A DNA stretch of 64,000 nucleotides, taken from assembly GCA_903895695.1 (NCBI GenBank), contig CAITUY010000047.1, positions 10,397 through 74,396 of the forward strand. Direction: 5' to 3'. Both the position numbers and the translations under genes were made by a program. This document shows positions 23,241 through 39,270 of this stretch, piece after piece (position 1 is the first letter of the stretch; the number at the start of each line of letters is the position of its first letter). The stretch comes from an uncultured bacterium (GTDB lineage Bacteria > Verrucomicrobiota > Kiritimatiellia > CAIKKV01 > CAITUY01). The notes beneath the pieces were generated by a model, which did not search any database, was not told where the DNA came from, and worked only from the letters and a program-made list of their open reading frames with translations.

Positions 23241-24062
23241 CTACTCGCCCGCCCCTTTGATCGGGGACTGCTGGCCCGCCTCCCAATCGCCTCCTATCTC
23301 TGGAGGCACTTCAAATGACTCTACCGTTTCATTTGTCGTACCAAGTAGACTGCGAAAACGGTCACGCAACGCGTTCATTCCACCTGTTGTTTGATTGAGG
23401 TGCTCAAGAACCAAAGGCCAACTTACTTTTTCCTCATCCGACTTCGTCCAGTTCGTCACGCCAAGATCGAACACCGAATTCACCGGGTCATACGGTTCGG
23501 TATAGGCACAGAACCAATTTGTCACTGATGTTTGCCGCAAGAACAAGAGATACACCTCCCCCGAAACCTTCAAATGAAGCGAACTTGGAGGGTTGGCAAT
23601 GAGGGCCCTCCGAATCTCATTAGTAACTCCGCGCCTCAGATAGAACATATTTATCGCCTCGCCATCGCGGGCGTTCTTGAGACCTTCGATCACGTCAATC
23701 CTGGCCCTACACACTTCAAACGGGTATCCACGTAGCGTTGGATATGTCAGGAATATGCACCCCCCCGTCGCGCCAAGCCGCGCAACCCTCCCCACGACAA
23801 CTTTGTCTGCCCTCCGCACAAGTGTCTCCGCACTCTCGCGTTGCTCACCCCTCGCAAGTGCATACGAGCCACCCACGCCGTAGCAGACTACCCCAATCAC
23901 GAATGATGCCACCATGTGTCTTAGGCTTGCCATTTCGTCTATCATCGTCCTTGTCACTCTGGCCACATAGACCTGCCGCATGCAGGAAGTCTGTTCGATG
24001 CTAATGATCAGTAAATGCTTCTTGTCACTTGAGTTGGGGAGTTGCCACTGCAGCAGTTCCAT
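23241..24062 (-). CDS. putative immunity protein for cassette 24008..24742 (start likely internal, ~23981 or 23945)
   Basis: Directly downstream of the toxin cassette; hydrophobic segment MVASFVIGVVCYGVGG; the called N-terminus overlaps the toxin's 3' end. Confidence 0.4.
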   Translation of the reverse strand: MELLQWQLPNSSDKKHLLIISIEQTSCMRQVYVARVTRTMIDEMASLRHMVASFVIGVVCYGVGGSYALARGEQRESAETLVRRADKVVVGRVARLGATGGCIFLTYPTLRGYPFEVCRARIDVIEGLKNARDGEAINMFYLRRGVTNEIRRALIANPPSSLHLKVSGEVYLLFLRQTSVTNWFCAYTEPYDPVNSVFDLGVTNWTKSDEEKVSWPLVLEHLNQTTGGMNALRDRFRSLLGTTNETVESFEVPPEIGGDWEAGQQSPIKGAGE

Positions 24063-24742
24063 CTCGCCATCAGTGAGCGGTGGATGACATCACCAGAGGG
24101 AGGCGGCAATATTGGATCTTCATTTACTACCCCAGTGTCTCCACCTGAAGGCGAACGTGGATCGTGTGGCCAGTTTGATGTATCAAGCCTATCGTAGTAG
24201 GCGACAGTACCCGTATAGAGCACGTATCCTTTGGAGCATGGCAACCCTCCCGGATCGCTAAAGGCCCATGTATCACGGGGAGGGTCGTCCATGCTCGCAT
24301 CGACGATAGACCACGCCTCCCAATAGTGTTGGTCGGGATCATTGATGGGGTGACCTTGGCAGTCGGTAATTGAAGACGTCATGGTCATCTCTTGAACGAC
24401 GGAACCCCATAGAGGCGAAGGACCTCGCACTTTCCACAACACTGACCACGAAAAGTGGCCACAGTCATCCGGAATGAACACGAGGTCATCCACCGAAAAG
24501 GACAACGAAGTCCCCCCGAGAATAGTCTGCTTACCCGTTCTATCGCACTTTTGCACACTATTGTTCTCGCAGATTGAGAACAGGTTGAGTCCACCTCTTT
24601 CCCCAATCGGATCTCGCGACGCCCACCGCCCGATCCCCGGCGAGAAGAAACGGAAACCAGATTCGCACCCGGTGAGACGGGGGTATGCGGTTTTCGATCT
24701 ACGCAAGGCCGTGCGTCCGAGGGGTGTCAGGGAGTAGGTCAT
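24008..24742 (-). CDS. orphan RHS C-terminal toxin cassette
   Basis: Leader MTYSLTPLGRTALRRSKTAYPRLTGCESGFRFFSPGIGRWASRDPIGERGGLNLFSI…; unique CT. Confidence 0.65.
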   Translation of the reverse strand: MTYSLTPLGRTALRRSKTAYPRLTGCESGFRFFSPGIGRWASRDPIGERGGLNLFSICENNSVQKCDRTGKQTILGGTSLSFSVDDLVFIPDDCGHFSWSVLWKVRGPSPLWGSVVQEMTMTSSITDCQGHPINDPDQHYWEAWSIVDASMDDPPRDTWAFSDPGGLPCSKGYVLYTGTVAYYDRLDTSNWPHDPRSPSGGDTGVVNEDPILPPPSGDVIHRSLMARWNCCSGNSPTQVTRSIY

Positions 24743-24757
24743 GGTCAGCGCGTCAGT

Positions 24758-25207
24758 TCATTCGTCAATTGTGGAAACATGCCCCTGTGGCTTCCGATCT
24801 CTCAGGTTGACGCTCATCAGATAATCCGTAATTGCGGGATTATCGCCACTCCGGGAGAACTCTTGGACTCGATCCCAATACCTCGATCCTTCTACTATCG
24901 CAAGAAGCGAACTAGCACGTTTCGACTTAGCTTCAATGAGTATCTGATAGACAGGGACAAGCAACAATGTTGCCGTCTCACGTTCACGTCGGTCTTTAGA
25001 ACGCAGTTTCGTCGTCAAATACCGAATTCCAGAATCGTTCACAAATGGGAGCACAAGTCTCGCGACTTCTGCCGCGTCAATCTCACCAGGAGACTTCCTC
25101 AAGGACCAGTAGTCATTCGCTTCTGACATGGCCTTGTCGTATCGGTGGGCCACACACCCTGTCATCACAATCCACAGAGGCAAGAGCAAGAACAGCGTCA
25201 TCTTCTT
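24758..25207 (-). CDS. putative immunity lipoprotein for cassette 25227..25889 (the six-frame ORF extends artefactually to 25546)
   Basis: Probable start MKKMTLFLLLPLWIVMTGC (lipobox LxxC) ~20 nt downstream of the toxin stop. Confidence 0.45.
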   Translation of the reverse strand, partial: KKMTLFLLLPLWIVMTGCVAHRYDKAMSEANDYWSLRKSPGEIDAAEVARLVLPFVNDSGIRYLTTKLRSKDRRERETATLLLVPVYQILIEAKSKRASSLLAIVEGSRYWDRVQEFSRSGDNPAITDYLMSVNLRDRKPQGHVSTIDE

Positions 25208-25226
25208 CATGGGGATTGGGTTCCTA

Positions 25227-25889
25227 CTAATTTGAATTAGTATCGTCCCAATCAGTTCCCAAGTCCTCGAACGGCGTACAGGTTTCGCCTTGGGGGCAAC
25301 ACTGGCTAGACTCACCCGTGGACTCAAAATGGTAGTACTGTTTGCCCCCTGGCCCTTTACCCAGGGAGACCTTAGTTTTGCGGTAGTGCCTCCAGAAGAA
25401 CCAATAACGGAAACTAATCCACATTTCTTTCGCAGGAGACATGCAGATGCATTGGTCCCAACCATACGGAATGCCAGGCCCGCCCGGCGAGATCTCCCCT
25501 CTGAATGATCTTGTCTTGCACTGGCCATCGCCCCCGCAAGTCGCACCCTCGCTTAAGCAGTACCGCTGAAGAGGAGCATTGTTACATGCACAACCGTTAT
25601 CCTGCATCACGAGGCCAAGCAGATCCCAACGAGATTCTCCATTGTTACTGAGAAAATCATAATCATTCGCCCCTCTGGAAACGGTCATGGCGTCAACCCG
25701 TTTGCGGACGCTCTGAGCCACAAATGCAAATTTGAAGAAAGTGTGCTCCCACATCGGATCCCGGCTGCACCAGCGACCCACGCCCGGCGAGAAGAAACGG
25801 AAACCAGATTCGCACCCGTTGAAACGGGGGTATGCGGTTTTCGCGGTACGCAAGGCCGTGCGTCCGAAGGGTGTGAGGGAGTAGCTCAT
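25227..25889 (-). CDS. orphan RHS C-terminal toxin cassette (Cys-rich CT)
   Basis: Leader MSYSLTPFGRTALRTAKTAYPRFNGCESGFRFFSPGVGRWCSRDPMWE…; CT rich in Cys/Gly (…GCACNN…CGGDGQCKT…QCICMSP…CCPQGETC). Confidence 0.6.
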   Translation of the reverse strand: MSYSLTPFGRTALRTAKTAYPRFNGCESGFRFFSPGVGRWCSRDPMWEHTFFKFAFVAQSVRKRVDAMTVSRGANDYDFLSNNGESRWDLLGLVMQDNGCACNNAPLQRYCLSEGATCGGDGQCKTRSFRGEISPGGPGIPYGWDQCICMSPAKEMWISFRYWFFWRHYRKTKVSLGKGPGGKQYYHFESTGESSQCCPQGETCTPFEDLGTDWDDTNSN

Positions 25890-25899
25890 GGTCAGCGCC

Positions 25900-26574
25900 C
25901 TACCAACTTCTCAACCACAGGTTCGATAGGAAATAGTCAGAGACGATCCCGCGTTGCGTGTAGTACACAGCCAAATACCAACCCTCCAATGCAGACGCCC
26001 CTCCCTCCGGATGACGGTTCTGAACGACATCCGCGAAACTCACGCATGCTTTGCCGATCCCCTTTTCCAGGCCATAGTCATCGGCATCAGGACCGAAGAT
26101 CGTCTTGATAGTCGACATACGCGTTCCAACACGCAGCGACTTACTGTCTAGTAGCGAAACACAGAATGCCAGCTTGTCGTGGCGGTTGCTGCATCCCAGG
26201 TACTGCACCTTCAGTATCTCCGCGCTGGTGTCGGCCTTCGTGAGGTGACCGTATACCTCGCCTAAGACGGGCGCCTTACTTACCGCCCTGACGGCATGTA
26301 TGCCTTCCGGACTTTGAACCGTGTCTTGACCCGCTGCATGGCGGGTGAGTGCCGCGCAACCAAAGCCAATCATAATCATGGCCGCAACTCCGCATGCGTC
26401 CAGCGCACACCGAAGTATCGTTGAGGCCAAGTGACCGTCACTATCTCGGTCAGTTGTCATCAGGCGTAGGTATCTGGTGTTTGGGCGTTTGAATGCAGGT
26501 GGCTCCGTATATGGTGGCAGGAAAGCCGGGGGGCTTCGGCATCTTTCTGCATATGGTGAACCATTGCTCTTCAC
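25900..26574 (-). CDS. putative immunity protein for cassette 26450..27235 (start likely internal, ~26460)
   Basis: Downstream partner ORF; signal/TM-like stretch ILRCALDACGVAAMIMIGFGCAAL. Confidence 0.4.
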   Translation of the reverse strand: MKSNGSPYAERCRSPPAFLPPYTEPPAFKRPNTRYLRLMTTDRDSDGHLASTILRCALDACGVAAMIMIGFGCAALTRHAAGQDTVQSPEGIHAVRAVSKAPVLGEVYGHLTKADTSAEILKVQYLGCSNRHDKLAFCVSLLDSKSLRVGTRMSTIKTIFGPDADDYGLEKGIGKACVSFADVVQNRHPEGGASALEGWYLAVYYTQRGIVSDYFLSNLWLRSW

Positions 26575-27235
26575 CAGGTCTGGCCATTTGGTCGGCGTAT
26601 ATGTAATAGCCCTTCTGGATCAGGACGTAGTTCCAGTATGAGTCATTATCGGTTCTTGCACTCGTGATCGCGTGACAACTCACGCCACCATCTGGAAGCT
26701 TCTTCGGTTCCCCATCCTTCCATTTCCCCTGTTTGGCCCACGTCAGGCAGCATGGTTTCGCCACGAGTTTTTTGCATTTCGCGCAGTCTTTTCGCGCATC
26801 GTCCTCGGTAAGCCAACACTTCGTGTCAGGCCAGTTTTCCGGCCAGAACTTGCCATCCCCAGCAATGCAGGTAACCCCAACGCAACCACGATCAAGTTGC
26901 CGCTTTACGTACGCATCCACGCTGACACCGTGGTCTTTTAACCAGTCCTCAAACTGGTCTCGGTCCATGTTGATACACTGATCCACAGGCGGTTCACTCT
27001 GTTGCTCACTGGGTTCTGAGGCCAGCCCGAGACGATCACGATAGCCCAGAGGTTGGTTGCTGAGGCATATGTATCGATTCATGCCATGTCTGGCACTAAT
27101 CGGATCCCTCGACGCCCACCTTCCCATCCCTGGCGAGAAGAAACGGAAACCAGATTCGCACCCGGTGAGACGGGGGTATGCGGTTTTCGATCTACGTAAG
27201 GCCGTGCGTCCGAGAGGTGTGATGGAGTAGGCCAT
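26450..27235 (-). CDS. orphan RHS C-terminal toxin cassette (Lys/Cys-rich CT)
   Basis: Leader MAYSITPLGRTALRRSKTAYPRLTGCESGFRFFSPGMGRWASRDPISARHGMNRYICL…DRLGL. Confidence 0.65.
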   Translation of the reverse strand: MAYSITPLGRTALRRSKTAYPRLTGCESGFRFFSPGMGRWASRDPISARHGMNRYICLSNQPLGYRDRLGLASEPSEQQSEPPVDQCINMDRDQFEDWLKDHGVSVDAYVKRQLDRGCVGVTCIAGDGKFWPENWPDTKCWLTEDDARKDCAKCKKLVAKPCCLTWAKQGKWKDGEPKKLPDGGVSCHAITSARTDNDSYWNYVLIQKGYYIYADQMARPGEEQWFTICRKMPKPPGFPATIYGATCIQTPKHQIPTPDDN

Positions 27236-27296
27236 GGTCAGCGGGTTAGAGCGTTTGCGTCTTGCGAGAATTGGTGCAGTTGCCTGTTGGCTTTAT

Positions 27297-27743
27297 TCAA
27301 TGTTCGACTTCCGCATCACCAAGGCCGGCTCCCGGCCGCTTGGCAGCGACACCAAACAAGCGAAGCAGGCCAATAATCTTGCTGTCGCGGACTACCTCAT
27401 CATCGGCTTCGCCCATAGATAGAACGACTCCACTCAAACTGCTCAGGGCCAAGGCCCAGAAGTCCCTGCCGCGGAGCCCATGAAGCACTTTGTCCTCAAC
27501 AGGAATCGACGCTTTCCCATGCTGAATGTCATCTGCCAGGTACCTGACGAGCGTCTCAGTTGCAGCACCTTTCGTGACCCCTTGCCGAAGCTGGACTGTC
27601 ACATAAAACGCATGGTGCATCACAACGCACCTCTCCCCTGAAAACAAGTCGTGCGGAGCCTGAGGCCTGGCGCTGTAACACCCTCCAAGCAGCAGAGCGA
27701 AGAGCAAAGGCGTGCCTTGCCGCAACAACCTTTGTTGATTCAT
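27297..27743 (-). CDS. putative immunity lipoprotein for cassette 27740..28492
   Basis: ATGA overlap with the toxin stop; lipoprotein signal LLFALLLGGC. Confidence 0.5.
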   Translation of the reverse strand: MNQQRLLRQGTPLLFALLLGGCYSARPQAPHDLFSGERCVVMHHAFYVTVQLRQGVTKGAATETLVRYLADDIQHGKASIPVEDKVLHGLRGRDFWALALSSLSGVVLSMGEADDEVVRDSKIIGLLRLFGVAAKRPGAGLGDAEVEH

Positions 27744-28492
27744 AGCTCATCGACCCCCAGTTGCACGCTGAACCATCCGCGGGGGGTGCCCTTCCACCGC
27801 ATGTATCCTTTCTTCGGTATGCTACTGGCATTCCACGTCGCAGTACCGGCAAAGCCCCACCATGTCTGTACTGATGGTGCCTCTTCGACATAGTCATGCG
27901 CCTGAAACCAATACGTTTGCGGACTAACGGGACGCGTTCGACTCACATCGGCGTTGTGCGGATCATCAGTAAGCCACCATCCTCCGTAGAATCCTGGATT
28001 GGGCTTAGCCGAACCGTAGTCATCAGGCAGGACTATATCGTCATTAGGAGGCGAGTCAGAATCGTCGCGCAACTCTGCGCCTTGGTGCAGATGACAGCCG
28101 CTGACATCGCCCCCTGCGCTATGGGTCACAACCGCCTTGACGCCGACACCGAAATCCCAAAGATACCCTGGCCTATTCGGATCTGTCGGTTGATATTTCA
28201 ACTCTCTCGTTGCGCTTGTCCAAGAGAGGTCGATTCGACAGTTGCCGGGGTCTATCGCACAGATGCAACACGCCTTCCTCAGGCCCAGATAATCTAGCGC
28301 AGTGTCCGGGCAGTTCCTAATGAAGCAAAGCAAGTTGCCTCCGCCTTTCTCGCCGATCGGATCGCGGCTCATCCAGCGTCCGATCCCCGGCGAGAAGAAA
28401 CGGAAACCAGATTCGCACCCGTTGAAACGGGGGTATGCGGTTTTCGATCTACGCAAGGCCGTGCGGCCGAGGGGTGTGAGGGAGTAGGCCAT
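27740..28492 (-). CDS. orphan RHS C-terminal toxin cassette
   Basis: Leader MAYSLTPLGRTALRRSKTAYPRFNGCESGFRFFSPGIGRWMSRDPIGEKGGGNLLCF…DYLGL. Confidence 0.65.
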   Translation of the reverse strand: MAYSLTPLGRTALRRSKTAYPRFNGCESGFRFFSPGIGRWMSRDPIGEKGGGNLLCFIRNCPDTALDYLGLRKACCICAIDPGNCRIDLSWTSATRELKYQPTDPNRPGYLWDFGVGVKAVVTHSAGGDVSGCHLHQGAELRDDSDSPPNDDIVLPDDYGSAKPNPGFYGGWWLTDDPHNADVSRTRPVSPQTYWFQAHDYVEEAPSVQTWWGFAGTATWNASSIPKKGYMRWKGTPRGWFSVQLGVDEL

Positions 28493-28556
28493 GGTCAGCT
28501 ATTCTCGTGGAGGAAACCAATACGATCAGGATGTCCTGCGACGCTGCGCTGAATCC

Positions 28557-29060
28557 TCATTCTGTATTCTTGGGTCTGCCCCGTGACTGCGCTTCTTCTG
28601 AAGCCGCAGCACCAAACCCATTGCCCTCAAGTCCAGGCGCTGACGATGTCACCACAGTGACGATATCGTCTTCCGTTCCGAAAACACGGTCGGGACCCGC
28701 CGATGACACCGTGCAGACATTCTGACGGACTTGGCACCTGAAGGGAGACCCCCACGGATCGGGTAATATGGCTTCCTCACGGGGCATCAGATCGGAGAGG
28801 GACTCGGGCCACTGCCCATGTCGAGCATGGTAGTCCGCCGCCACGTCGCCCAGCCGTTTCACGTAGCGCAGCACGCCTTCTGCTGCCTCTCTATTCCGTT
28901 GCGCCCTGACTGCTCTCACTGCATCGGCACTCCACAACCCAACGAGCCCAATGACCAGACACGCAACTCCGATCAGAAGCACGACTCGGTGTCTATTGAG
29001 CCATAAATGGATGGTTCCGCCCGCAGGGTCTGCGCACGTTTTACTGTCGGCCATAGGCAT
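28557..29060 (-). CDS. putative immunity protein with GspG/type-II-pseudopilin-like fold (degenerate, no GFTLIE motif); six-frame ORF extends to 29198
   Basis: TM helix VVLLIGVACLVIGLVGLW, then …AEGVLRYVKRLGDVAADYHARHGQWPESLSDLMP…LPDPWGSPFRC…SSAGPDRVFGTEDDIV, which parallels the GspG signature (…Y.LDNG.YP…GL.AL…DPWGNPY…S.G.DG..GG.G.DADI). Confidence 0.4.
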   Translation of the reverse strand: MPMADSKTCADPAGGTIHLWLNRHRVVLLIGVACLVIGLVGLWSADAVRAVRAQRNREAAEGVLRYVKRLGDVAADYHARHGQWPESLSDLMPREEAILPDPWGSPFRCQVRQNVCTVSSAGPDRVFGTEDDIVTVVTSSAPGLEGNGFGAAASEEAQSRGRPKNTE

Positions 29061-29814
29061 CGTGTAGCATCCATTCGTCTTCCAGCTCCCCGAACACCGA
29101 GAAACTCGGGTCCTGAAACAAGTTTCTCTTCCATGCATAGAAGTTGAGCCACCGTACCCAGATCCACTTGTTTGCCGGGTTGCCATCAGGCAAAACATTG
29201 AACGTGTAATACTTCGCCATCTTGACCGTCATCTTGCACGACCCCTCACACTCACATCGACCCTGTGAGTCAGCACACCCGCATCGCCATTTACAGTCGG
29301 CGAACAGTGACACCTGCCAGTTCCCCGCGTACGCAAGGCCAAACAACGATACGGCTGCCGGCATTACATCATCGAACACCTCTGCCGAATGCGGTGGTGC
29401 GGGCAATCGGATATTCTCGATTGCGGCGCCCATGCATCGAAACCGTGTTCCCAAAGCCTTTTCTACCGTCAATCGCCAATCCTTCATGTGCCACGACGTC
29501 TTAAGGCGAGAAAGCACGTCGTCTGAAAGTCTCCCGCCTTCTGGGGCGAACGAGAAGTAGTTGATGAACATCTGCCAAGGACCATCGAATGTCCACTCGA
29601 CCAACCCTGCGGGGTCGGCCCTATCCGGCGAGTCATTGGCACAGAAAACATATGCGTCGAGTCCGCCCATCTCCTCAAGCGGATCGCGGCTGATCCAGCG
29701 TCCGAGTCCCGGCGAGAAGAAACGGAAACCAGATTCGCACCCGGCGAGACGGGGGTATGCGGTTTTCGATCTATGCAAGGCCGTGCGGCCGAGGGGTGTC
29801 AGGTGGTAGGGCAT
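29041..29814 (-). CDS. orphan RHS C-terminal toxin cassette (six-frame ORF begins at 29925; conserved start at 29814)
   Basis: Conserved leader begins at the internal Met: MPYHLTPLGRTALHRSKTAYPRLAGCESGFRFFSPGLGRWISRDPLEEMGGLDAYVF…DPAGL; Cys-rich CT (CKWRCGCADSQGRCECEGSCK). Confidence 0.6.
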   Translation of the reverse strand: MPYHLTPLGRTALHRSKTAYPRLAGCESGFRFFSPGLGRWISRDPLEEMGGLDAYVFCANDSPDRADPAGLVEWTFDGPWQMFINYFSFAPEGGRLSDDVLSRLKTSWHMKDWRLTVEKALGTRFRCMGAAIENIRLPAPPHSAEVFDDVMPAAVSLFGLAYAGNWQVSLFADCKWRCGCADSQGRCECEGSCKMTVKMAKYYTFNVLPDGNPANKWIWVRWLNFYAWKRNLFQDPSFSVFGELEDEWMLHDAYGRQ

Positions 29815-30137
29815 GGTGAGGGTCCAGGTTCGTACGGCCAGCGCACGGTTCCCGATCCATATGGTGAGGTTATTACAGCCCCTCGACGGAGGAACACCGT
29901 CGTCTTCCATGCAACGCTGTCCCACTCTGTTGCAGGATGATGGGCACTCAGACTCATGATCCCATTCACATTTTCACCGATAGTCACGCTACCATCGGGA
30001 TCGCCCTCCAACTCGGCCGCATTCGTACCAGGAAACGTTATGCTCTGAACCACTCCATACAGGCGACCCTCTGACATGACGCGGTCACCGACGCAGACAA
30101 CCTCTCCCGTATGATACCGGAAGCAATCGCGCTTCAC
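29799..30137 (-). CDS. putative immunity protein (small beta-rich) for cassette 30134..30847
   Basis: ATGA overlap with the toxin stop; homologous in outline to 30909..31151. Confidence 0.45.
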   Translation of the reverse strand: MKRDCFRYHTGEVVCVGDRVMSEGRLYGVVQSITFPGTNAAELEGDPDGSVTIGENVNGIMSLSAHHPATEWDSVAWKTTVFLRRGAVITSPYGSGTVRWPYEPGPSPCPTT

Positions 30138-30847
30138 GGTGCGACACCTCCGCCAAGGATTGGTTCAACCCAAGGCCCTTCTCCCGGCCACGGCGTATCT
30201 CCACACGTCACATCCAACGCCAATGACTGTCGCTTGCAGGCACATGGTTCTGTCGGGTGCGTCACAGGGAGTTGCACAACATAGGCGTGGTGCGTGTGCG
30301 TGCCCGGACACCCGTGCCCAGCGACAAAACATGTCCTGTTCATTGTGTATCCCGCGAGCGGGATACATGGCAGACAAAACGGCAGATGCGGGACGGTCTT
30401 TGTCTGAGTTACCGTTTGCGGCACGGAGTTCACACCTGTATTCATGCATTGACAGTCCCGTTCCCGGTAAACATCGTATGTCTCGGTATAGGTTCCCGTC
30501 CGCGTGTACACCAAGTATGTCACGCCGCCGGCAATGAGCGTGCCAGCAGCCACCCATGGACCCCATTCCGGCAATGTGACGCCTGCAAGAATCTCAGCAC
30601 AGATCTCCCCTATAGTTGGTATTGCGATTCCCGCCTGGCCCAAGGGATCAAGGAGGAATATGGGGGTGTTCTGAACGAACGCGTACCGGTTGACTCCGCC
30701 ACTCTCCGCAACCGGATCGCGCGACGCCCACCTTCCTAGCCCTGGCGAGAAGAAACGGAAACCAGATTCGCACCCGTTGAAACGGGGGTATGCAGTTTTC
30801 GATCTACGCAAGGCCGTGCGGCCGAGAGGTGTGAGGTGGTAGGCCAT
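30134..30847 (-). CDS. orphan RHS C-terminal toxin cassette (CT with hydrophobic segment; paralogous to 31175..31822)
   Basis: Leader MAYHLTPLGRTALRRSKTAYPRFNGCESGFRFFSPGLGRWASRDPVAESGGVNRYAF…DPLGQ; CT shares CLPCIP…H.H…C.CK…GP…GGG(V/I)AP* with the next cassette. Confidence 0.6.
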   Translation of the reverse strand: MAYHLTPLGRTALRRSKTAYPRFNGCESGFRFFSPGLGRWASRDPVAESGGVNRYAFVQNTPIFLLDPLGQAGIAIPTIGEICAEILAGVTLPEWGPWVAAGTLIAGGVTYLVYTRTGTYTETYDVYRERDCQCMNTGVNSVPQTVTQTKTVPHLPFCLPCIPLAGYTMNRTCFVAGHGCPGTHTHHAYVVQLPVTHPTEPCACKRQSLALDVTCGDTPWPGEGPWVEPILGGGVAP

Positions 30848-30908
30848 GGGTAGCTGCAGGCACCGCGCCCTGCCTGATCGTTCATTGCTGCTTCGCGTGA
30901 TTCATCAC

Positions 30909-31151
30909 TTAGGATTTCGGCCGCTTTGTTAGGCTATGATGGTGCCCAAATGGGTGTAGAACCAAAATGCCGTCCTCATACATGACCAGAAGACCTCCCG
31001 TGTCTTCACAGTCAAATGAGGCCGCCGATTGGGTGCCAGGCATGCATACCGCCTCAACTCGTCCCGGTCTCCCGTCAATCATCACAAGATCTCCGTTCCT
31101 CACAGATTCTTGCGAATCGCCGTATTTCGAACTGAGAGTGTCATCAGGCAT
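30909..31151 (-). CDS. putative immunity protein for cassette 31175..31822 (six-frame ORF extends to 31403 over the toxin 3' end)
   Basis: Likely start MPDDTLSSKYG…; …RNGDLVMIDGRPGRVEAVC… resembles …GEVVCVGDRVMSEGRLYGVV… in 29799..30137. Confidence 0.35.
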   Translation of the reverse strand: MPDDTLSSKYGDSQESVRNGDLVMIDGRPGRVEAVCMPGTQSAASFDCEDTGGLLVMYEDGILVLHPFGHHHSLTKRPKS

Positions 31152-31174: not shown

Positions 31175-31822
31175 CTAAGGCGCAATGCCTCCGCCCTGAG
31201 CAGGGCCGGCTTCCGGTGCCAAAACCCCAGGCAATGGGTCGGGCAGTACCTCTTTCCAGAAACACTTGCACCCTCCGACTGCCGGACTCTGCAACATCAC
31301 TAGCATGTGGGAATGCGGCGTGGGAATTCCGTTGTGGGCTGGCGAGGGCGGCAAGTCCACGCGATACGCAATGGACCCAACGACTGGTAGGCACGGCAGA
31401 CACCCTTGAGTTCTTCGTTTACAGCGGTCACATCTCTTCATTGCCTCCGCAATACCATCCGCTACGGCGTCCGCGAAACTTGCTGCGGCCGCTGCAATAT
31501 CGTGGAGTGTTTGTTGTCCTGCAGGCGATTGCGCCCAGGCTTCGGCGGTCACACACACCGCAATGGTCCCGATTACCAAGAGTACGACTGCGTCATCCGC
31601 TATTACAATTCGTCCATCCTTGTCGTTCTTATCCGTGGGGTTGTTCGACACGAAGCCATAGAGATTCCGCCCCCCGAGTTCTCCCATAGGATCGCGTGAA
31701 ATCCACCTCCCTGTTCCTGGCGAGAGGAAACGGAAACCAGATTCGCACCCGCTGAGTCGGGGGTATGCGGTTTTCCATCTACGCAAGTCCGTGCGTCCGA
31801 GGGGTGTCAGGTGGTAGGACAT
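31175..31822 (-). CDS. orphan RHS C-terminal toxin cassette (paralogous CT to 30134..30847)
   Basis: Leader MSYHLTPLGRTDLRRWKTAYPRLSGCESGFRFLSPGTGRWISRDPMGELGGRNLYGFVSNNPTDKNDKDG. Confidence 0.6.
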   Translation of the reverse strand: MSYHLTPLGRTDLRRWKTAYPRLSGCESGFRFLSPGTGRWISRDPMGELGGRNLYGFVSNNPTDKNDKDGRIVIADDAVVLLVIGTIAVCVTAEAWAQSPAGQQTLHDIAAAAASFADAVADGIAEAMKRCDRCKRRTQGCLPCLPVVGSIAYRVDLPPSPAHNGIPTPHSHMLVMLQSPAVGGCKCFWKEVLPDPLPGVLAPEAGPAQGGGIAP

Positions 31823-32220: not shown

Positions 32221-32436
32221 TCAACCCGGCGTCGGAGTTTGGCCCTTGGCCCGGTCGAATATCTCGTCCACCGTCTGCCCGTCGTAGAGGCGCCGGGAGA
32301 CATCCACGTAGTCGGTCGGTTCGCGGTGGATCAGGGTGAGAAACCGAAACGCACCTGTTGCACCCAAGGCCTTGTTGAGGACCTCAATGCCGCTCAGGCG
32401 CAGTTCGTTATCGGTCATGACTTGGCTTGTGCTCAT
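32221..32436 (-). CDS. small protein downstream of the PIN gene, possible antitoxin/partner
   Basis: 71 aa, 5 nt after the PIN-domain ORF on the same strand; no family recognised. Confidence 0.3.
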   Translation of the reverse strand: MSTSQVMTDNELRLSGIEVLNKALGATGAFRFLTLIHREPTDYVDVSRRLYDGQTVDEIFDRAKGQTPTPG

Positions 32437-32440
32437 ATCC

Positions 32441-32938
32441 TCACCATCTCTTCTGCACGTAGTCTACAGGATTAATGACCAGAAGCGCAACCGGCAAACG
32501 GCCAGCCTTGGACACGATCTCGTCATCACAGGTCACAAACCACGCTGCTTTCGCGTGTTCGGCAGCAGCAACGTGCAAGGCATCCTTGGCCGACAGCCCC
32601 GCCACGGCCTGAATCCGAGCCGCGGATATGCGAATGGGTTCTTCTGGGCCTATTCGGACGCGGCAGATTGCGGCAAGGCGGACGACTTCCTGTGCACGGT
32701 CAACGAAAGGACACACCCGGTTCTCGTCCTCGTGCATAAACGACCACGCCAATTCCACCTCACCGTTCTCGGCATCCTCGAAGATCTTCTCGCAGGCTTC
32801 CGCCTCCAAACGGATACGATGCTGCCGGGAGTCGTCAAACCCCCGCTGGAAGCAGTTGTAGTCGAGATAGATGAGTTCCGCCATGTCGAGTACCCCGTGC
32901 CGAACGTGGTTACGATAGTATGGACTCTTCCTGGTCAC
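32441..32938 (-). CDS. PIN-domain protein (VapC-like ribonuclease candidate); likely start MAELIYLDYN (~32881)
   Basis: N-terminal MAELIYLDYNCF… and acidic residues spaced as in PIN/VapC folds. Confidence 0.45.
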   Translation of the reverse strand: MTRKSPYYRNHVRHGVLDMAELIYLDYNCFQRGFDDSRQHRIRLEAEACEKIFEDAENGEVELAWSFMHEDENRVCPFVDRAQEVVRLAAICRVRIGPEEPIRISAARIQAVAGLSAKDALHVAAAEHAKAAWFVTCDDEIVSKAGRLPVALLVINPVDYVQKRW

Positions 32939-33896
32939 AAGCCTCTTTCTCCCTTGGATGGCACTTGCGGTGGGTCTCTTTGAGGTCGGTGATGGTGAGC
33001 TTGGCGTAGTGCTTGAGCGTCTCCAGCGACTCGTGGCCGAGCAGTTCCTTCACGTGGTACATGCCGGCCCCGGCCCGCAACAGCTCGGTCGTGCAACTGC
33101 GGCGGAAAGTGTGGGGCGTGACGTTGACGTCGATGCGGGCCTGTTCGGTCAGCCGGTGCACAAGTTTGAGGAAGACGCCGTACTTGACCCGCTCGCCCGC
33201 CGCGGTGACGAAGAGGGCCTGCTCGTCGCCCGTCGGGAATGCTGGCCTGACTCCTTTGACGTACCCTTCGAGGTAGTGCATGGCCGTGCGGCCGATCGGC
33301 ACCATGCGTTCCTTCTGGCCCTTGCCTTTGACGCGGGCCAGCCCGTGGGCGTAGTCGACGTCGCCCAGGTCCAGCCCCAGCAGTTCCGAGACCCGCGCCC
33401 CGCTCGAATAGACCAGTTCCAGCATGGCCCGGTTGCGGTAGCCCTCCGCCCCGTTGGTCGGCACCACGTCCAGCAGCCGCCGCACTTGCTCGTGGGTCAG
33501 CACGCTGCCCGGCAGGGTCTTGGGCTCCTTCACGTACTCGATGCCGTCGGACAACCGCGACTGGATATGGCCCTGCACGGCCAGGTACTTGAGGAACGAG
33601 CGCAGTTCCTGGACTTGCTTGTTGATGGTGCGGGGGTTGAGCGGCCGCCCCTTGCGGGTCCGCCGCCGGGACAAATGTCCCTGCCAGCGCTGGAGGTGGC
33701 TGGCCCGCAACAGGTCGGGCGAGTACACGCCCACCGTCACCCCGAGCCACTGCGCCCAGTTCCGCAGGTCGTTGTTGGCCTGCTTGCGCGTCCAGGCGCT
33801 GAAGTTGAGCGCGCCCAGGTGCCGCACGTATTCGTCCAGTAGTTCGAGGAAAGTCGTCATAGTCGCATCCTCACGATCCCGGTTTGCTCCGGGCAT
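32910..33896 (-). CDS. tyrosine site-specific recombinase (XerC/D-phage integrase family)
   Basis: C-terminal catalytic signature …VTPHTFRRSCTTELLRAGAGMYHVKELLGHESLETLKHYAKL (R…HxxR…Y); N-terminal SAM-like core-binding domain. Confidence 0.8.
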   Translation of the reverse strand: MPGANRDREDATMTTFLELLDEYVRHLGALNFSAWTRKQANNDLRNWAQWLGVTVGVYSPDLLRASHLQRWQGHLSRRRTRKGRPLNPRTINKQVQELRSFLKYLAVQGHIQSRLSDGIEYVKEPKTLPGSVLTHEQVRRLLDVVPTNGAEGYRNRAMLELVYSSGARVSELLGLDLGDVDYAHGLARVKGKGQKERMVPIGRTAMHYLEGYVKGVRPAFPTGDEQALFVTAAGERVKYGVFLKLVHRLTEQARIDVNVTPHTFRRSCTTELLRAGAGMYHVKELLGHESLETLKHYAKLTITDLKETHRKCHPREKEACDQEESILS

Positions 33897-34827
33897 GAAC
33901 CGCCTGCAATTCCGTGATCGTCAGGCGCAGGTACTGGGACAGGTGACTGAACGAGGCATGGCCGAGGAGCATCTGCAGGTCCACCGGGTGGGCGCCGCGG
34001 CGCAACATGTGCGTGGCGCAGGCCCGCCGCAAGCTGTGCGGCGTGATGCGCGTCTGCACGCCCGAGTCGCGTCCATGCCTCACGATGCCGAGCCGGATGG
34101 CCACATATCCGAGCGGCTTTCCATACTGCGTCACCCAGAGCTCAGGCGGCCTGCCGCCCGCGGCCGTCCTCTTCCCGACCTCGGCCTCGTACCGCCGCAG
34201 CCACTCCACCGCCTGGGCGCCCAGCGGCAGGACCCGCTCCCGCTCGCCCTTGCCCATCACGCGCACGGTCCCGTTCACCATGTCCACGTCCCGGACCATA
34301 AGCCGGGACAGTTCCTCGACGCGCATGCCCGTGCCGTAGGCCGTCTCCAGGATGGTCCGATCGCGCAGTCCCGTGTAGGTCGTGGTGTCCGGCGTCGCCA
34401 GCAGGCTCGTCATCTCCTCCTCGGTAGGCACCGGCATGATGGGCGACTGAATCTTGCGGATCACGATGCCCTCCGCCGGGTTGCAGAACACTTCCTGCGT
34501 CTGCTCCAGCCAGCGGAAGAACTGCTTGATGGCACGGATGAAAACCTCCACCGAGGCGGGCTTCCACTGCCGGTCCACCATGCCGGCGCGGTATTCCTCG
34601 ATGTCCGAGCGCGTCACGTCCATGGCCCGCACGATGCCCTTACCATCCAGGAACGCGCAGAACCGTTCCAGCGCCTGCGTATAGATCTCGACGGTCCGCC
34701 GGCTGTACCGCCGTGAGGCCACGCGCTCGGCGTAACGCCTGACGAGTACGGCTACACGACTACTGCTACGACTATGTGTTGCATCCATATGCGCTCCCCG
34801 CACCACTTTCGACCAGGTTATTGCCAT
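33871..34827 (-). CDS. tyrosine site-specific recombinase (second, overlapping the first)
   Basis: …ITPHSLRRACATHMLRRGAHPVDLQMLLGHASFSHLSQYLRLT; overlaps the downstream recombinase by ~25 nt, consistent with translational coupling. Confidence 0.8.
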   Translation of the reverse strand: MAITWSKVVRGAHMDATHSRSSSRVAVLVRRYAERVASRRYSRRTVEIYTQALERFCAFLDGKGIVRAMDVTRSDIEEYRAGMVDRQWKPASVEVFIRAIKQFFRWLEQTQEVFCNPAEGIVIRKIQSPIMPVPTEEEMTSLLATPDTTTYTGLRDRTILETAYGTGMRVEELSRLMVRDVDMVNGTVRVMGKGERERVLPLGAQAVEWLRRYEAEVGKRTAAGGRPPELWVTQYGKPLGYVAIRLGIVRHGRDSGVQTRITPHSLRRACATHMLRRGAHPVDLQMLLGHASFSHLSQYLRLTITELQAVHARSKPGS

Positions 34828-37147
34828 CCGCCTGCATTTGAGGCACTTGGACCGATTCCACGGGGTGGCCAGGTGCTGACCACCCTGTGACCACCCCCGC
34901 CGCTGCCATCGAGGTGGCCTGTCCGTCGTACGCCAGGCGGTAACGGTAGGTGAGCCCGACGCGCCCGGCCACGGTCAGGACGAACTCCATCTCGACCAAC
35001 TGCTTGAGGTAACGGCGCACGCGGAGATGGGCCCAGCCGGTGAACTCGCGGATCTCCCGGCGGGAGAACACCACGTCGCCGGGCACTTCCACGCCATCGC
35101 GCCCCTCCCGCCGCTGTTGCTCGATCCTGCCGGCCACCATGCGTTCGATGTGCATCAGCAGGTCCAGGCTCACCCGGTTGAGGTCGTCCAGGCTCTTGCC
35201 CAGGATCTCCCGCGCCAGCCCGTCGGCAACGGCCAGGTCCGCCGCTTCCACCTCGATGTAGTCCCGGCCCTCGTCCTGCCGGACCTGCTTCGACATCTGC
35301 CGCAGGAACGCCACGGCCCGGATCAGGTTCAGGTACTTAGGCTGGTCGCGCCGGCTCTGCAGTCGGTCGTCGCCGTAGCAGAGCTGTTCGGCGAACGGGT
35401 TGACCACCTTGACGGGTTTCAACAGCCGCTGGAAGTTGCGGTGTAACCGCAGCGTCGCCTCACGCCCCCCGCGCTCCTTCTCGCCATCGAGGGTTTGGCG
35501 CCTGCGTTGGCAGGCGAGGATCGCCCGGGTCTGCTCCCGGCTCTCGTCCACACTCGTTACGAAGAACCGACTGCGGGTCTCGGGGTCGGTCTCGGGATCG
35601 GTCGTTGTGATGAAGACCGCGGTCGGGCCTTCCACGCGGTTCACCGCGGTCGTGAGCTTGCCGGTGGCGAAGTCCTTGACGGTCACCTCGATCACCAGTT
35701 CCCCGGCCGAGATCAAGTTGCGGATCGCGTACGTGGCGTCCTCCGCCCCCGCCCCTTCCTCCAAGGCGAGGATCTTGTGCTTGAGGCTCTGCCGGGCCTT
35801 GTAGAAGAGCGCCTTACCGGACAGGCTCGTCAGCTTGACCGAGTCCTCCGGCGGACAGAACGCGAGCGTCGCGTCCTGCAGCGCCGACTTGCCGGCGCCC
35901 GAACTGCTTAGGATCAGCACGGACAGCGGATGGTCGGTCTTCCGGCTGACGGCGGCCAGGTAGCAGAGCAACTTGTTGACCTCCTCGCCCACGAGCCCGC
36001 ACGCGGCGTAGTCGGCGACGATACGTTCGATCAGGTCCGGGCTGCGCCCGAAGGCTTCCGCCTCCCGGCGCTCCTCCTCCGGGATGTCGACCGTCTCACC
36101 CGCGTCCGCGGCCGACGCAGACGGCACGTGGGTTTCGCAACAGCGGATCAGCCGCACCAGGTCCGCCTCGATAGCCTCGGTGGTCTCCTCGAAAAACCGG
36201 CACAGATCCTGGGCCAGCGTTTTGCGGGCCTTGGCCGAGTAGAAGTCGAGCGTGTCCACGTGCAGTCGGCCGGCGTGCTCTGTCCTGAGCGTCGCTCGCA
36301 GCCGCCTTGGTCCCTTGTCGATCCCGCGCAACTCATAGCGGCGGCGGTCGAGCCGCACGCGGAACCCGTCGGGTATGGGCTCAGTCGCCGAGTCCGGCCC
36401 GGCTGACGGCTGCCCGGTGTCGAATTCGGCCAGGGCCGCATCCACGAGCGCGGTGACGCGCGGGAGTCCGTCGCGCAGGAGGACGGCATTGAGCGGCTCG
36501 GCAAGCGGACAGGCCCGGATGGCGACCGGCAATCCCGAGAAGGTTTCCCGCAGTGAGTCGGCATTGACGGCCAGGCACGCGAGTCGCTGTACGCCGCTCG
36601 CGCGGATCGCCTGGCGGTCGCGCGCGGTGAGACGGCCCTCCGGCACGGCGACGGCGTTGGGATACCCCGCCTTCTGGAGCGTGAGAGCGTCGAGGATGTC
36701 CAGCGTCGCGAGCACCTCCCCATGGGTGCGGAACACGGGTGCGTTCCAGAGCCCCGTGGCGACGCCCGGCAGGTGGACCGCCTTCCCGGTCGCCATGCAA
36801 AGGCCCGCAAGCCCGATCGCCAAGCCCTCGACATCCGCCAGCGGGAAGACGACGCAGTCGCGGAACCGCTCCTTGCCGGACTCATCGAGGATGTTCATCG
36901 ACCTGAGTACGTCGCGGATGCCGCCCTGGCGTGGCAGCGTCCCGACAAGTTTCCCCGTGGCGCAGCCGATCCGGAACTGACCGGCCAGGTCGGAATCGTT
37001 CAGGCCATGGCGGGCAAGAAAGCCCGGCCCTTCCGGCTCCTTGGTCAGCGTCTCGTGGTAGAACCCCGCGACCTTCTCCCACAGGGCCGCCTGCTCACAA
37101 AGCGGACCTCCCTCCGGCCTTCGTGGCATGTCCGTCCTCCCGTTCAT
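34772..37147 (-). CDS. large P-loop NTPase, putative TOPRIM primase/replication-type protein of the integrative element (six-frame ORF extends to 37273)
   Basis: Walker A LSSSGAGKSALQDATL; N-terminal region with a possible TOPRIM-like E…DxD arrangement (ADVEG…DILDALTL); operonic with a Zn-ribbon protein and two tyrosine recombinases. Confidence 0.4.
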   Translation of the reverse strand: MNGRTDMPRRPEGGPLCEQAALWEKVAGFYHETLTKEPEGPGFLARHGLNDSDLAGQFRIGCATGKLVGTLPRQGGIRDVLRSMNILDESGKERFRDCVVFPLADVEGLAIGLAGLCMATGKAVHLPGVATGLWNAPVFRTHGEVLATLDILDALTLQKAGYPNAVAVPEGRLTARDRQAIRASGVQRLACLAVNADSLRETFSGLPVAIRACPLAEPLNAVLLRDGLPRVTALVDAALAEFDTGQPSAGPDSATEPIPDGFRVRLDRRRYELRGIDKGPRRLRATLRTEHAGRLHVDTLDFYSAKARKTLAQDLCRFFEETTEAIEADLVRLIRCCETHVPSASAADAGETVDIPEEERREAEAFGRSPDLIERIVADYAACGLVGEEVNKLLCYLAAVSRKTDHPLSVLILSSSGAGKSALQDATLAFCPPEDSVKLTSLSGKALFYKARQSLKHKILALEEGAGAEDATYAIRNLISAGELVIEVTVKDFATGKLTTAVNRVEGPTAVFITTTDPETDPETRSRFFVTSVDESREQTRAILACQRRRQTLDGEKERGGREATLRLHRNFQRLLKPVKVVNPFAEQLCYGDDRLQSRRDQPKYLNLIRAVAFLRQMSKQVRQDEGRDYIEVEAADLAVADGLAREILGKSLDDLNRVSLDLLMHIERMVAGRIEQQRREGRDGVEVPGDVVFSRREIREFTGWAHLRVRRYLKQLVEMEFVLTVAGRVGLTYRYRLAYDGQATSMAAAGVVTGWSAPGHPVESVQVPQMQADGNNLVESGAGSAYGCNT

Positions 37148-37157
37148 GTCGCCAACC

Positions 37158-37574
37158 CTAGGCGCGAATTTCCCAACGGGCCACGAAGTTTTGTAACGTA
37201 AGACCCACATCGCGCCAGACCCCACGCCAGTCGCGGATTCCCGCGATAACGACGTGTCGTAACGCAAAACCATCCAAGTCTCGGAACCTCACACCGACCG
37301 TGTTTTGACCGGCGCGATGAATTGGAAGCAGAATGTCCACCGTGAACGCCTTCCGCCTGTCCTGCCGCCAGTAGAACGGATGAAGCCGCCGCCAGGCCTG
37401 GCTGCGGTCGATGTCCTTCTTGAAGTGGTCGGGGTTCTTCCGCCGCCATTGCCGGCAGTTCTCCCGGTTACGCGCCCGCTGGCACACCCGACGCGGGCAG
37501 TACCGCTGGTGCCAGGCGTTGTGGGGTTCAGGCTGGAACAACTTCCGGCAATGCGGGCAGCGCAGCGGTTTCAT
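37158..37574 (-). CDS. small Zn-ribbon (CxxC…CxxxxC) DNA-binding-like protein
   Basis: MKPLRCPHCRKLF…YCPRRVC; basic; first gene of the element operon. Confidence 0.4.
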   Translation of the reverse strand: MKPLRCPHCRKLFQPEPHNAWHQRYCPRRVCQRARNRENCRQWRRKNPDHFKKDIDRSQAWRRLHPFYWRQDRRKAFTVDILLPIHRAGQNTVGVRFRDLDGFALRHVVIAGIRDWRGVWRDVGLTLQNFVARWEIRA

Positions 37575-37966
37575 GAGTCGACCTCCTTTGGCCCCGCGTC
37601 AGACGGAGCGGGGGAATCGCCATACCTTAGGGGGAAGTCAATACGACAGGAGCCGCTGCCGACGCGAGAGCGGCAATGGCGGGATTCGTCCGGACGAGAG
37701 GTAGGCAACGCCTATTCCGTCAGCCAGGCCACCAACCGAGCCGTAGACCCGGATGAGCCCTATGACCGCACCGGTAAATCGGGGGAGGAACAAAAGAAGG
37801 ATCATCCGTCCGACGCCGGCGTAGTCATCGAACTGTTACGACGAAGCCGACAAGAAACATCGCACGACGGAACCGGGGATTCCTACGACCGTAGCGCTGG
37901 AATCAAGGTCGTTTCCAGCAGGTTTAATTCGGAAACCGCGTGCGACGGCAATTCGGTCGACAGTAG

Positions 37967-38467
37967 TTAACGTCGCAGGCGATCTGCAAGGCGCGTTCTG
38001 ATGCTCTGCCATGTCTGCCGGTCCACGTTTCGCCTTGAGCCGGTTTCATCAATGGCGGTTAGTTCCGGGTGCCACACCGGACACATGATCCGAACGCCTT
38101 CGGGTGTGTTTGTGAAGTATAGATATGTGATTCTTAGTGAAGTGGCCCCATTGCTTGGTCCCACCCACGGAGCCTCGATCTTCTCGAATTGCGGACTGTT
38201 CGCTAGGGCACAGGAGAAAATCCACGTTCGATTCGTTGCAAGCGGGAGAAGGTCGGAAAGACTGGCGGGGCGGACGCCGTGCGCTTCTTCATACTGTCGG
38301 CAGAGTTCCCCTAAAGCCAGGGTATTCGCTGCGCAAAGTTGGTAGAGCGCGCCATGGGTGCTCCTCTCTCGCCGAATATACAGGCACTGCCCTATGGCGA
38401 ACCAGCACAGGACAGCAAACACAAAGACGGACAAGAGCGACTTGATGACGGACGATGGAGAAGGCAT
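37967..38467 (-). CDS. putative immunity protein, pseudopilin(GspG)-like, for cassette 38470..39270
   Basis: Starts 3 nt after the toxin stop; N-terminal TM LLSVFVFAVLCWFAIG; shares …Y..HG..P.SLSDL(L/M)P with 28557..29060. Confidence 0.4.
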   Translation of the reverse strand: MPSPSSVIKSLLSVFVFAVLCWFAIGQCLYIRRERSTHGALYQLCAANTLALGELCRQYEEAHGVRPASLSDLLPLATNRTWIFSCALANSPQFEKIEAPWVGPSNGATSLRITYLYFTNTPEGVRIMCPVWHPELTAIDETGSRRNVDRQTWQSIRTRLADRLRR

Positions 38468-38469
38468 CG

Positions 38470-39270
38470 CTATTGCCTCCTTCTGTCACGCCCTCCCCCA
38501 CCCGGCCAAGTCGGTCCCAAGCCGGAATTGCAGTATTTCTGGTCGCACGGCTTGCAGTCTGCATAGCGATCATCGGCCGGGACACTCCCGGAGCTGGGAA
38601 ATCCGTTGAACCCGGCCTTGGCAAAATCTATGGAATTAGCCACTTCCGGCCAGTCCGATGGCTGAAACGACTTCCAGGCGACGATAGCTGCCTCCATCTG
38701 CACTGTCGAGGCGTCGCACAACTTCGCCATCCATCCGAATAGAGCGTAGTTGACTGACCACTTCCAGTAGCAACTACCATTCACGGTCACGGACTCGGAG
38801 CACTTGCGGCCGAAGGGACACTGCGAAACGCCATCGGCACCTCGGATACGAGGATCGGCCCAGACCAGACTGGCCAGATCCCACCCACCGAATGCAAAGT
38901 CCGGGGACTGTGTCCAGTCCTTAAAGAACGGATCACAATTCGAAGCAGCACGTTTCGGGTCTGTCTGCTTCAGATCGTTGAAACGCTGTTCAACCTGCGT
39001 CTTCGATGCCTTCAATCCATCCGTAACGTCTGGCCCGCATTTCCAGCACGACTTGTTGAACCACCAATCCCACATGGTGGATAAACCGAAAGGGTCGTAC
39101 TTAGACAAAGGTTCGTTAAGCGCGAACCCGTATAGGTTGTAGTCGCGGTTAATCGTACGCCTGCGGTTATGCGCTCTGAATCCAAGTTCGCGGATGGGAT
39201 CACGACTCATCCATCTCCCGGTCCCTGGAGAGAAGAAAATGAGTCTATAATACGGAATATACGTTACCAT
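38470..39270 (-). CDS. orphan RHS C-terminal toxin cassette with degenerate/replaced 5' leader (Cys/Trp-rich CT)
   Basis: MVTYIPYYRLIFFSPGTGRWMSRDPIRELGFRAHNRRRTINRDYNLYGFALNEPLSKYDPFGLS… keeps the GRW.SRDP…NLYGF…DPxGL tail, but the first ~25 codons are replaced by an AT-rich sequence. Confidence 0.5.
   Translation of the reverse strand: MVTYIPYYRLIFFSPGTGRWMSRDPIRELGFRAHNRRRTINRDYNLYGFALNEPLSKYDPFGLSTMWDWWFNKSCWKCGPDVTDGLKASKTQVEQRFNDLKQTDPKRAASNCDPFFKDWTQSPDFAFGGWDLASLVWADPRIRGADGVSQCPFGRKCSESVTVNGSCYWKWSVNYALFGWMAKLCDASTVQMEAAIVAWKSFQPSDWPEVANSIDFAKAGFNGFPSSGSVPADDRYADCKPCDQKYCNSGLGPTWPGGGGRDRRRQ
39228..39270 (-). promoter_or_regulatory. AT-rich segment with sigma70-like -35/-10 (TTGAAT-N16-TATTAT on the minus strand) at the head of the array
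   Basis: Minus-strand sequence TTGAATGGTAACGTATATTCCGTATTATAGACTC is ~30% GC in a ~65% GC background. Speculative; promoter consensus in this lineage is unknown. Confidence 0.2.

Follow-up and report, generated by a model that had tools for sequence, protein, structure and literature searches.

Cysteine-rich orphan RHS toxin tips in a cassette array of an uncultured Kiritimatiellia bacterium, one of them with a predicted colicin M-like fold

We have analysed a stretch of 64,000 nucleotides, hereafter called the window, from an uncultured bacterium of the Kiritimatiellia (Verrucomicrobiota; assembly GCA_903895695.1, contig CAITUY010000047.1, positions 10,397 to 74,396). In an earlier note, made from the sequence alone, four open reading frames (ORFs) of this window were singled out for their cysteine-rich C-terminal toxin domains (CTs), which were thought to be possible novel folds. 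These ORFs, designated here A, B, C and D, were confirmed and, like all genes of interest in the window, are encoded on the minus strand (Table 1). They belong to four of ten RHS-CT/immunity cassettes, nine of which form a block at 21.1-31.8 kb, with cassette D located separately at 38.5-39.3 kb. Every cassette comprises an ORF with an RHS core tail and a variable CT, and, downstream of it, a small ORF that adjoins or overlaps the toxin stop codon; all ten toxin ORFs are intact and start from an invariant ATG. The variable CTs of A to D are 127-203 residues long and each is different, and the ten CTs are mutually unrelated, apart from those of I and J. Cassettes G, H, I and J lie within the range covered by the earlier note and were not listed there. 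The nine-cassette block resides in an island of 53-58% GC between 20 and 32 kb, in a window of approx. 66% GC, and all nine of its cassettes open with a 5' DNA repeat of approx. 170 nt (repeat families D1-D3) with a sharp 5' boundary at CTGACCATG (alignment A1).

Table 1. Cassettes, putative immunity genes and neighbouring features of the window (aa, residues; TM, transmembrane)
Feature	Position	Strand	Remarks
Nine-cassette block E, F, G, A, B, H, C, I, J	21155-31822	-	core tail, CT and downstream ORF in each
Cassette A toxin ORF	25227-25889	-	220 aa; core-tail remnant residues 1-93, ending WDLLGL; CT-A residues 94-220 (25230-25610)
Cassette B toxin ORF	26450-27235	-	261 aa; core tail residues 1-71, ending RDRLGL; CT-B residues 72-261 (26453-27022)
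Cassette C toxin ORF	29041-29814	-	257 aa, counted from the conserved ATG; core tail residues 1-70, ending ADPAGL; CT-C 29044-29604
Cassette D toxin ORF	38470-39270	-	266 aa; truncated core tail (..FFSPGTGRWMSRDP..YDPFGL); CT-D 38473-39081
Cassette E toxin ORF	21155-21913	-	TIGR03696 match
Cassette F toxin ORF	22441-23139	-	TIGR03696 match
Cassette G toxin ORF	24008-24742	-	TIGR03696 match
Cassette H toxin ORF	27740-28492	-	TIGR03696 match
Cassette I toxin ORF	30134-30847	-	TIGR03696 match
Cassette J toxin ORF	31175-31822	-	TIGR03696 match
Immunity candidate A	24758-25210	-	lipoprotein-like start MKKMTLFLLLPLWIVMTGC, hydrophobic N-terminus; 16 nt past the CT-A stop
Immunity candidate B	25900-26460	-	starts MTTDRD..., hydrophobic segment CGVAAMIMIGFGCAAL; approx. 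11-nt overlap with the CT-B stop
Immunity candidate C	28557-29060	-	N-terminal TM anchor; overlaps the CT-C stop
Immunity candidate D	37967-38467	-	N-terminal TM anchor; begins directly after the CT-D stop
Immunity candidate E	20593-21072	-	
Downstream ORF of cassette F	22109-22444	-	multi-pass membrane protein
Leader-only copy of the 5' repeat (eleventh)	20492-20577	-	downstream end of the array
PIN-domain gene and 71-aa ORF	32221-32938	-	between the integrases and the array
Inserted block between cassette D and the other nine	32910-37574	-	PF00589; phrog_1 integrase

The N-terminal parts of these ORFs are of RHS origin. Positions 32-76 (of 76) of the NCBIfam model TIGR03696 match the first 60-70 residues in all ten ORFs; relative to the curated cut-off of 32.5 bits, the scores are above it for B (39.8 bits, E = 4.8e-10) and C (40.2 bits) and below it for A (23.8 bits, E = 4.9e-5, positions 32-72) and D (28.4 bits, E = 1.7e-6). 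Toxin ORFs A to D begin 7-27 residues ahead of the matched core tail. The ranges given as CTs in the earlier note are therefore CTs in part only: their first approx. 64-93 residues are conserved RHS core tail, and the remainder is the CT. A 26-residue leader (MxYHLTPLGRTALRRSKTAYPRLxGCESG) is present in nine of the ten ORFs and missing from D, and is followed by FRFFSPGxGRWxSRDPIGE...D-x-x-G-L. RHS proteins normally release their tip at a D-x-x-G-L boundary, and a boundary of the D-P-x-G-L type is found before the toxin in A to D and likewise in their homologues. In tblastn searches with genuine RHS proteins the leader aligned to the YD repeats that close their cores (P0001, 168-230; P0013, 231-349), with the alignment extending upstream of the ATG in some cassettes, and so it is a degenerate RHS core end, namely the last YD repeat. 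A structured RNA, an intron end or an att site was ruled out as the identity of the leader by the lack of an Rfam match and by its alignment to RHS YD repeats. Scans of genome contigs with the leader alignment, and with close relatives of CT-C, gave no matches. The leader-only copy of the repeat is fused in frame to an ORF (19396-20577) for a GntR and periplasmic-binding-type regulator, and the repeat in it stops abruptly at GAATCTGG.

Cassettes A to D thus have the orphan-cassette layout, i.e. a 3' fragment of the core, a variable CT and an adjoining immunity gene, and their toxin ORFs are RHS tips of the orphan type. From the RHS polymorphic toxin loci of Enterobacteria, orphan rhs-CT/rhsI modules have been described which share with the present cassettes the rhs-core 3' fragment, the variable tip, the tightly coupled immunity gene and the head-to-tail arrangement with shared 5' homology. 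The array differs from those modules in several respects: a full-length rhs gene is missing from the 64 kb, upstream of the cassettes as elsewhere, the cassettes number ten and each opens at an ATG that is conserved and in frame, what remains of the core has strongly degenerated (the leader), an integrase-bearing element interrupts the array and a PIN gene stands at its upstream end. No RHS shell was detected in the window by tblastn with RHS trunks or by profile scans. As a system, the array is of an ordinary kind; arrays of orphan RHS tips are well known, with most of their tips unannotated, and only the length, the conserved start codon and the lack of a nearby rhs gene are unusual here.

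The amino acid composition of the CTs was compared with that of the long ORFs of the same window (13,925 residues; Cys 1.57%, Trp 2.63%, Gly 11.35%). The earlier note had described the domains as rich in Cys, Trp and Gly, which held best for cysteine: its proportion is raised in CT-A (7.9%, p = 4e-5; 10 residues), CT-B (5.8%, p = 2e-4; 11 residues) and CT-D (4.9%, p = 2e-3; 10 residues, plus 13 Trp), and marginally in CT-C (3.7%, p = 0.03), in which six of the seven cysteines are clustered inside one 20-residue stretch. Tryptophan is raised in two of the four only, CT-C (5.9%, p = 0.01) and CT-D (6.4%, p = 0.003), and glycine is not enriched in any of them (6.8-13.4%). The peptides quoted there are present, CKWRCGCADSQGRCECEGSCK in ORF C and QCICMSP...CCPQGETC in ORF A. 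At the profile level the domains are motif-less, as had been proposed, and lie outside current profile libraries: none of the ten CTs had a match in Pfam (E<=0.1), PHROGs or PADLOC, NCBIfam recognised only the TIGR03696 core tail, and no CT match was obtained in the PDB by phmmer or by family profile. None of the four CTs could be assigned by sequence to an established toxin family, so the clear assignment that the earlier note had named as contrary evidence was not obtained.

The cysteines are conserved far above overall identity. All ten of CT-A are kept in a homologue with 66% overall identity and all 11 of CT-B in one with 53%, while CT-D retains nine of ten at 47% identity and all ten in two closer homologues. 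Among CT-C relatives with 33-50% identity, six of the seven are kept in P0014 and P0016 and four in P0013 and P0015; C108 and C119 are lost together in two relatives, as a disulfide pair would behave. Most likely, the cysteines of these toxin domains form disulfides.

All four CTs recur at RHS C-termini elsewhere. The homologue of CT-A (P0001, 64-66% identity) ends a true RHS fragment on contig L001, and that of CT-B (P0006, 51-53% identity, contig L005) bears the JGI name 'RHS repeat-associated protein'. Homologues of CT-D are P0002 (87%), P0003 (72%) and P0004/P0011 (46%), and the variant P0011 has a longer RHS core with YD-repeat sequence upstream of the CT. Comparison with contig L012 gave ratios of non-synonymous to synonymous substitution rates (dN/dS) of 0.10 for CT-D and 0.24 for its downstream immunity gene, values which show that this pair does not consist of decaying fragments. 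It should be noted that the word-index search missed 79%-identical relatives of CT-D when queried with a 706-residue concatenate of the four CTs, which returned the CT-A homologue alone, and found them with a 555-residue query; the family sizes of A and B are therefore lower bounds, and negatives of this search were not taken as absence.

CT-B conserves the pattern GC(V/I)G...SCH...WNY, with a histidine approx. 69 residues after G-C-x-G and then N/D, an arrangement whose order and distances would agree with a papain-like Cys-His hydrolase. Tae and Tse1, amidase effectors from type VI secretion systems (T6SS), belong to the papain-like/NlpC-P60 type and act in the periplasm. CT-B resembles them in the G-C-x-G, the later His, the N/D, the many cysteines and the exported immunity protein, but is without a profile or PDB match, and the resemblance is of motifs only. 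The structure model of CT-D was too poor (pLDDT 53, no meaningful structural match) for its lack of a match to carry any meaning.

Among the ten downstream ORFs, eight have a transmembrane (TM) segment or a lipobox at the N-terminus, including all four from cassettes A to D, and comparison of the immunity proteins with Pfam gave nothing significant. Immunity protein A is 55% identical to the product of the ORF directly downstream of the CT-A homologue in L001 (2196-2459), and C is 42% identical (E = 2e-22) to that of the ORF directly after the full-length RHS gene bearing P0013 in L013. For D, 75% identity was found with an ORF 3 nt after P0002 in L012 and 51% with a partial ORF after P0003 in L010. 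Exported immunity proteins point to toxins acting outside the cytoplasm, and the recurrence at RHS C-termini with conserved cysteines, together with membrane-anchored or lipoprotein immunity proteins, makes the target-cell periplasm the most likely site of action of CT-A to CT-D. The suggestion in the earlier note of disulfide-stabilised domains with extracytoplasmic action agrees with the conserved cysteines and with the nature of the downstream genes. The downstream ORFs of cassettes I and J are without membrane anchors, so toxins I and J probably act in the cytoplasm.

The domain of immunity protein C contains a pseudopilin-like stretch (DPWGSPF...SSAGPDRVFGTEDDIV). Separately from the question of where the toxins act, we observed that immunity candidates C, D and E share such a pseudopilin/GspG-like stretch (pairwise E = 2e-4 to 3e-4); their resemblance to GspG/pilin entries of the PDB is weak. 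This hints at one exported scaffold reused against unrelated toxins.

The largest set of relatives was found for CT-C, for which an exhaustive HMMER search among 1.84 billion representatives returned 23 hits at E<1e-3. These are the window's own ORF (P0012, 99% identical), 21 credible relatives and one spurious hit, P0017, a repeat protein of 5491 residues whose match is the sum of low scores over nine 'stretches'. The 21 relatives mostly follow directly after an RHS core tail of the form ..GRWxSRDP..DxxGL, and one of them (P0013, contig L013) is part of a full-length RHS locus (1330 + 523 residues). The family conserves G94-N-W-Q, K131-x-Y133-T-F, N142-P-x-N145 and six cysteines.

An AlphaFold2 model of CT-C, computed from a 22-sequence alignment, reached a pLDDT of 87.8 and a pTM of 0.81 and is predicted to consist of a helix, a strand and further helices, followed by four long strands that form a sheet or barrel. 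Its structural matches (score and length in brackets) were pectocin M1 (7.5, 138), syringacin M (6.6, 142), PaeM (6.1, 139), colicin M (4.9, 123) and the DUF3289 T6SS effector BtpeA (4.9, 129), the other matches, to Hia and to outer-membrane barrels, being limited to a sheet portion of 50-100 residues. These same neighbours were reported for the structure of colicin M (PMC2533080). With Foldseek, the top PDB match was again a DUF3289 effector (9jdi), although weak (E = 0.039, probability 0.54, TM score 0.39), so that the colicin M family and DUF3289 are the best neighbours of the model in two programs. The features of the ColM catalytic-domain fold, an open beta-barrel with an alpha/beta extension, are seen in the predicted structure. 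DUF3289 is a structural homologue of colicin M and toxic in the periplasm (PMC11148199), and the immunity proteins of ColM are either membrane-anchored periplasmic or integral membrane proteins (PMC5821083). CT-C is accordingly predicted, from the model, to adopt the open-barrel fold of the colicin M/DUF3289 lipid-II-degrading toxins, of which it may be a new variant.

The members of the colicin M family (PF14859: ColM, PaeM, syringacin M and pectocins) are lipid II phosphatases that act in the periplasm. CT-C differs from them in that it has no sequence or profile match and lacks their catalytic signature, that its long hairpin bears the conserved six-Cys cluster, and that it is joined to RHS instead of a bacteriocin receptor/translocation module; we treat it as a putative envelope toxin that works in the manner of the colicin M fold, and it is not a PF14859 member. 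In place of the ColM signature, DxYDx5HR (PMC5821083), the family has (I/V)SKxYTFx3-5GxNPxN, in which no Asp, His or Arg is conserved. Three short motifs of CT-C occur in the same order as those of ColM, including that with the essential G197, a likeness which is qualitative only. From the DUF3289 T6SS effectors such as BtpeA, CT-C differs in having no Pfam match and an immunity protein that is not DUF943, and the resemblance is structural only. If the model is correct, lipid II or an undecaprenyl-linked precursor would be a reasonable candidate for the target of CT-C, although our confidence in it falls somewhat short of even. A bolder proposal, which we regard as rather doubtful, is that CT-C and its approx. 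21 relatives represent an undescribed branch of the ColM fold, with a Lys-Tyr-Thr/Asn-Pro-x-Asn centre, braced by three disulfides, in place of the Asp/His/Arg phosphatase centre, and hence with a new chemistry or envelope target, and that, in addition, one or more of CT-A, CT-B and CT-D adopts a new, disulfide-rich fold as a periplasmic toxin. In the course of these comparisons, residues 119-162 of colicin M itself (including HYLWGNG) were seen to match a PDB chain labelled 'lysozyme' (5i8l_A, E = 3e-4).

Taken as a whole, we consider it probable that A to D are orphan RHS tips which act in the periplasm, are paired with immunity proteins and include, in CT-C, a ColM-like fold. A number of observations weigh against this explanation. 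Neither a full-length rhs gene nor secretion machinery was found within the 64-kb window, and delivery is therefore entirely inferred. For the fold of CT-C, no match to the Pfam models PF14859 and DUF3289 was obtained with CT-C or with the CTs of its 21 relatives, the search of the PDB with the family profile (A5) was empty, hhalign of CT-C against ColM gave a probability of 0.3%, and the essential ColM residues D226, D229, H235 and R236 have no counterpart in the family. Only one to three relatives each are known for A, B and D, those of A and B having been sought by the word-index method only. Immunity protein B has no homology to the protein encoded after P0006 on contig L005, likewise a lipoprotein (MKAFMKLAGAVMVLMSFVVGC), and the topology of the immunity proteins was read from hydropathy and from an inspection for lipobox patterns instead of being computed with a dedicated predictor. 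Finally, the Cys clusters could in principle bind zinc.

Among the alternatives, the one that fares best, and is nevertheless improbable, takes all four CTs for new folds unrelated to any known toxin, in line with the 'novel toxin folds' of the earlier note. As worded there the claim could not be upheld: the confident model of CT-C has colicin M and DUF3289 as its closest structural neighbours, and at a pLDDT of 53 the structural negative for CT-D is without meaning.

Slightly less probable again is that the cysteines bind zinc and that the domains act in the target cytoplasm, for example as unrecognised nucleases or deaminases. The CxxC and CxC spacing (CWKCGPD and CKPCD in D, CxWxCG...CxCxxxC in C) does resemble zinc knuckles, and the downstream ORFs of I and J in the same array are of the cytoplasmic type; those of A to D, on the other hand, all have TM or lipoprotein N-termini, and three are conserved alongside the toxin. 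Furthermore, the Cys counts are even in A, in D and in the core of the CT-C family (six), exactly two cysteines are lost together in two CT-C relatives, and the ColM-like fold is a periplasmic toxin fold.

Between cassette D and the other nine lies an inserted block with two tandem tyrosine recombinases, an 833-residue P-loop/primase-like protein, the primase match of which is weak, and a 138-residue Cys/His/Arg-rich ORF. Both integrases, generic members of PF00589, share the direction of transcription of the cassettes, and a recombinase with 52% identity (L001, 59-898) is encoded directly upstream of the RHS fragment with the CT-A homologue on an unrelated contig. One could therefore suppose that these enzymes shuffle the cassettes in an integron- or shufflon-like manner, with the leader as a site for site-specific recombination instead of a substrate for homologous recombination. 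The position of the two integrase genes directly upstream of the nine-cassette block, the recurrence of a related integrase on an independent contig, the sharp 5' edge of the repeat and the leader-only copy that closes the array would agree with this. We nonetheless hold it to be very unlikely, as the leader is accounted for as a degenerate RHS core end, L001 and the window have no DNA similarity outside coding regions (and share no att DNA), and the integrases are accompanied by primase-like and PIN genes, as is usual for integrative elements. A search for the ends of the element revealed neither terminal nor inverted repeats, the repeats being all direct, and no structured RNA or DNA family was recognised by Rfam.

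The least credible option is that the ORFs are decaying gene fragments without present function, as might be thought from the lack of an RHS shell, a secretion domain or an obvious promoter and from the general knowledge that the orphan rhs tips of Enterobacterial modules are usually silent, but ten intact ORFs with an invariant ATG, purifying selection on the toxin-immunity pair of cassette D and conservation of toxin-immunity pairs across contigs argue otherwise.

On established RHS biology, delivery of the orphan tips A to D would require a full-length rhs gene elsewhere in the genome, and the conserved 5' segment could provide the homology by which a cassette replaces the tip of that gene. 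In the meantime, the immunity genes would guard against neighbours. RHS tips are a main source of new antibacterial activities, and the present analysis adds four tip families without annotation, each of which has its own exported immunity protein. One of them, the CT-C family of approx. 20 members, is predicted to be built on the scaffold of colicin M while lacking the ColM catalytic residues. CT-A to CT-D are candidate toxins of a new kind against the cell envelope, and could each be considered for a new Pfam family.

Several of the remaining cassettes deserve mention. The CT of cassette F (132 residues) has no profile match and contains an HExxH motif (HEIAHH) together with 11 cysteines, which suggests a small zinc metallopeptidase toxin; the protein encoded downstream of it spans the membrane several times. 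The CTs of cassettes I and J are related (E = 3e-5); both have hydrophobic segments directly after the core tail, the motif CLPC(I/L)P and a C-terminus of the form GGG(V/I)AP. CT-G has a relative with 36% identity in a metagenomic array with the same leader (L003, 655-1365), both ending in W-x-CC, and the first approx. 60 residues of CT-H are shared with a cassette of L002.

The PIN-domain gene is probably part of a toxin-antitoxin pair. Pairs of the HepT/MNT and DUF433/DUF5615 types were observed between the toxin cassettes of related arrays (L005, 1777-2416, 3910-4499 and 6052-6952). Arrays with the same leader as in the window were detected in metagenome contigs L002-L004, and arrays with other leaders in L005-L007 and L012. 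In the array of L012, with the CT-D homologue and a second cassette (173-560 and 1900-2200), the repeated 5' segment is a different one without likeness to RHS; its copies have 90% identity over 262 nt, and it meets the cassettes at ..W(P)ARDPI.

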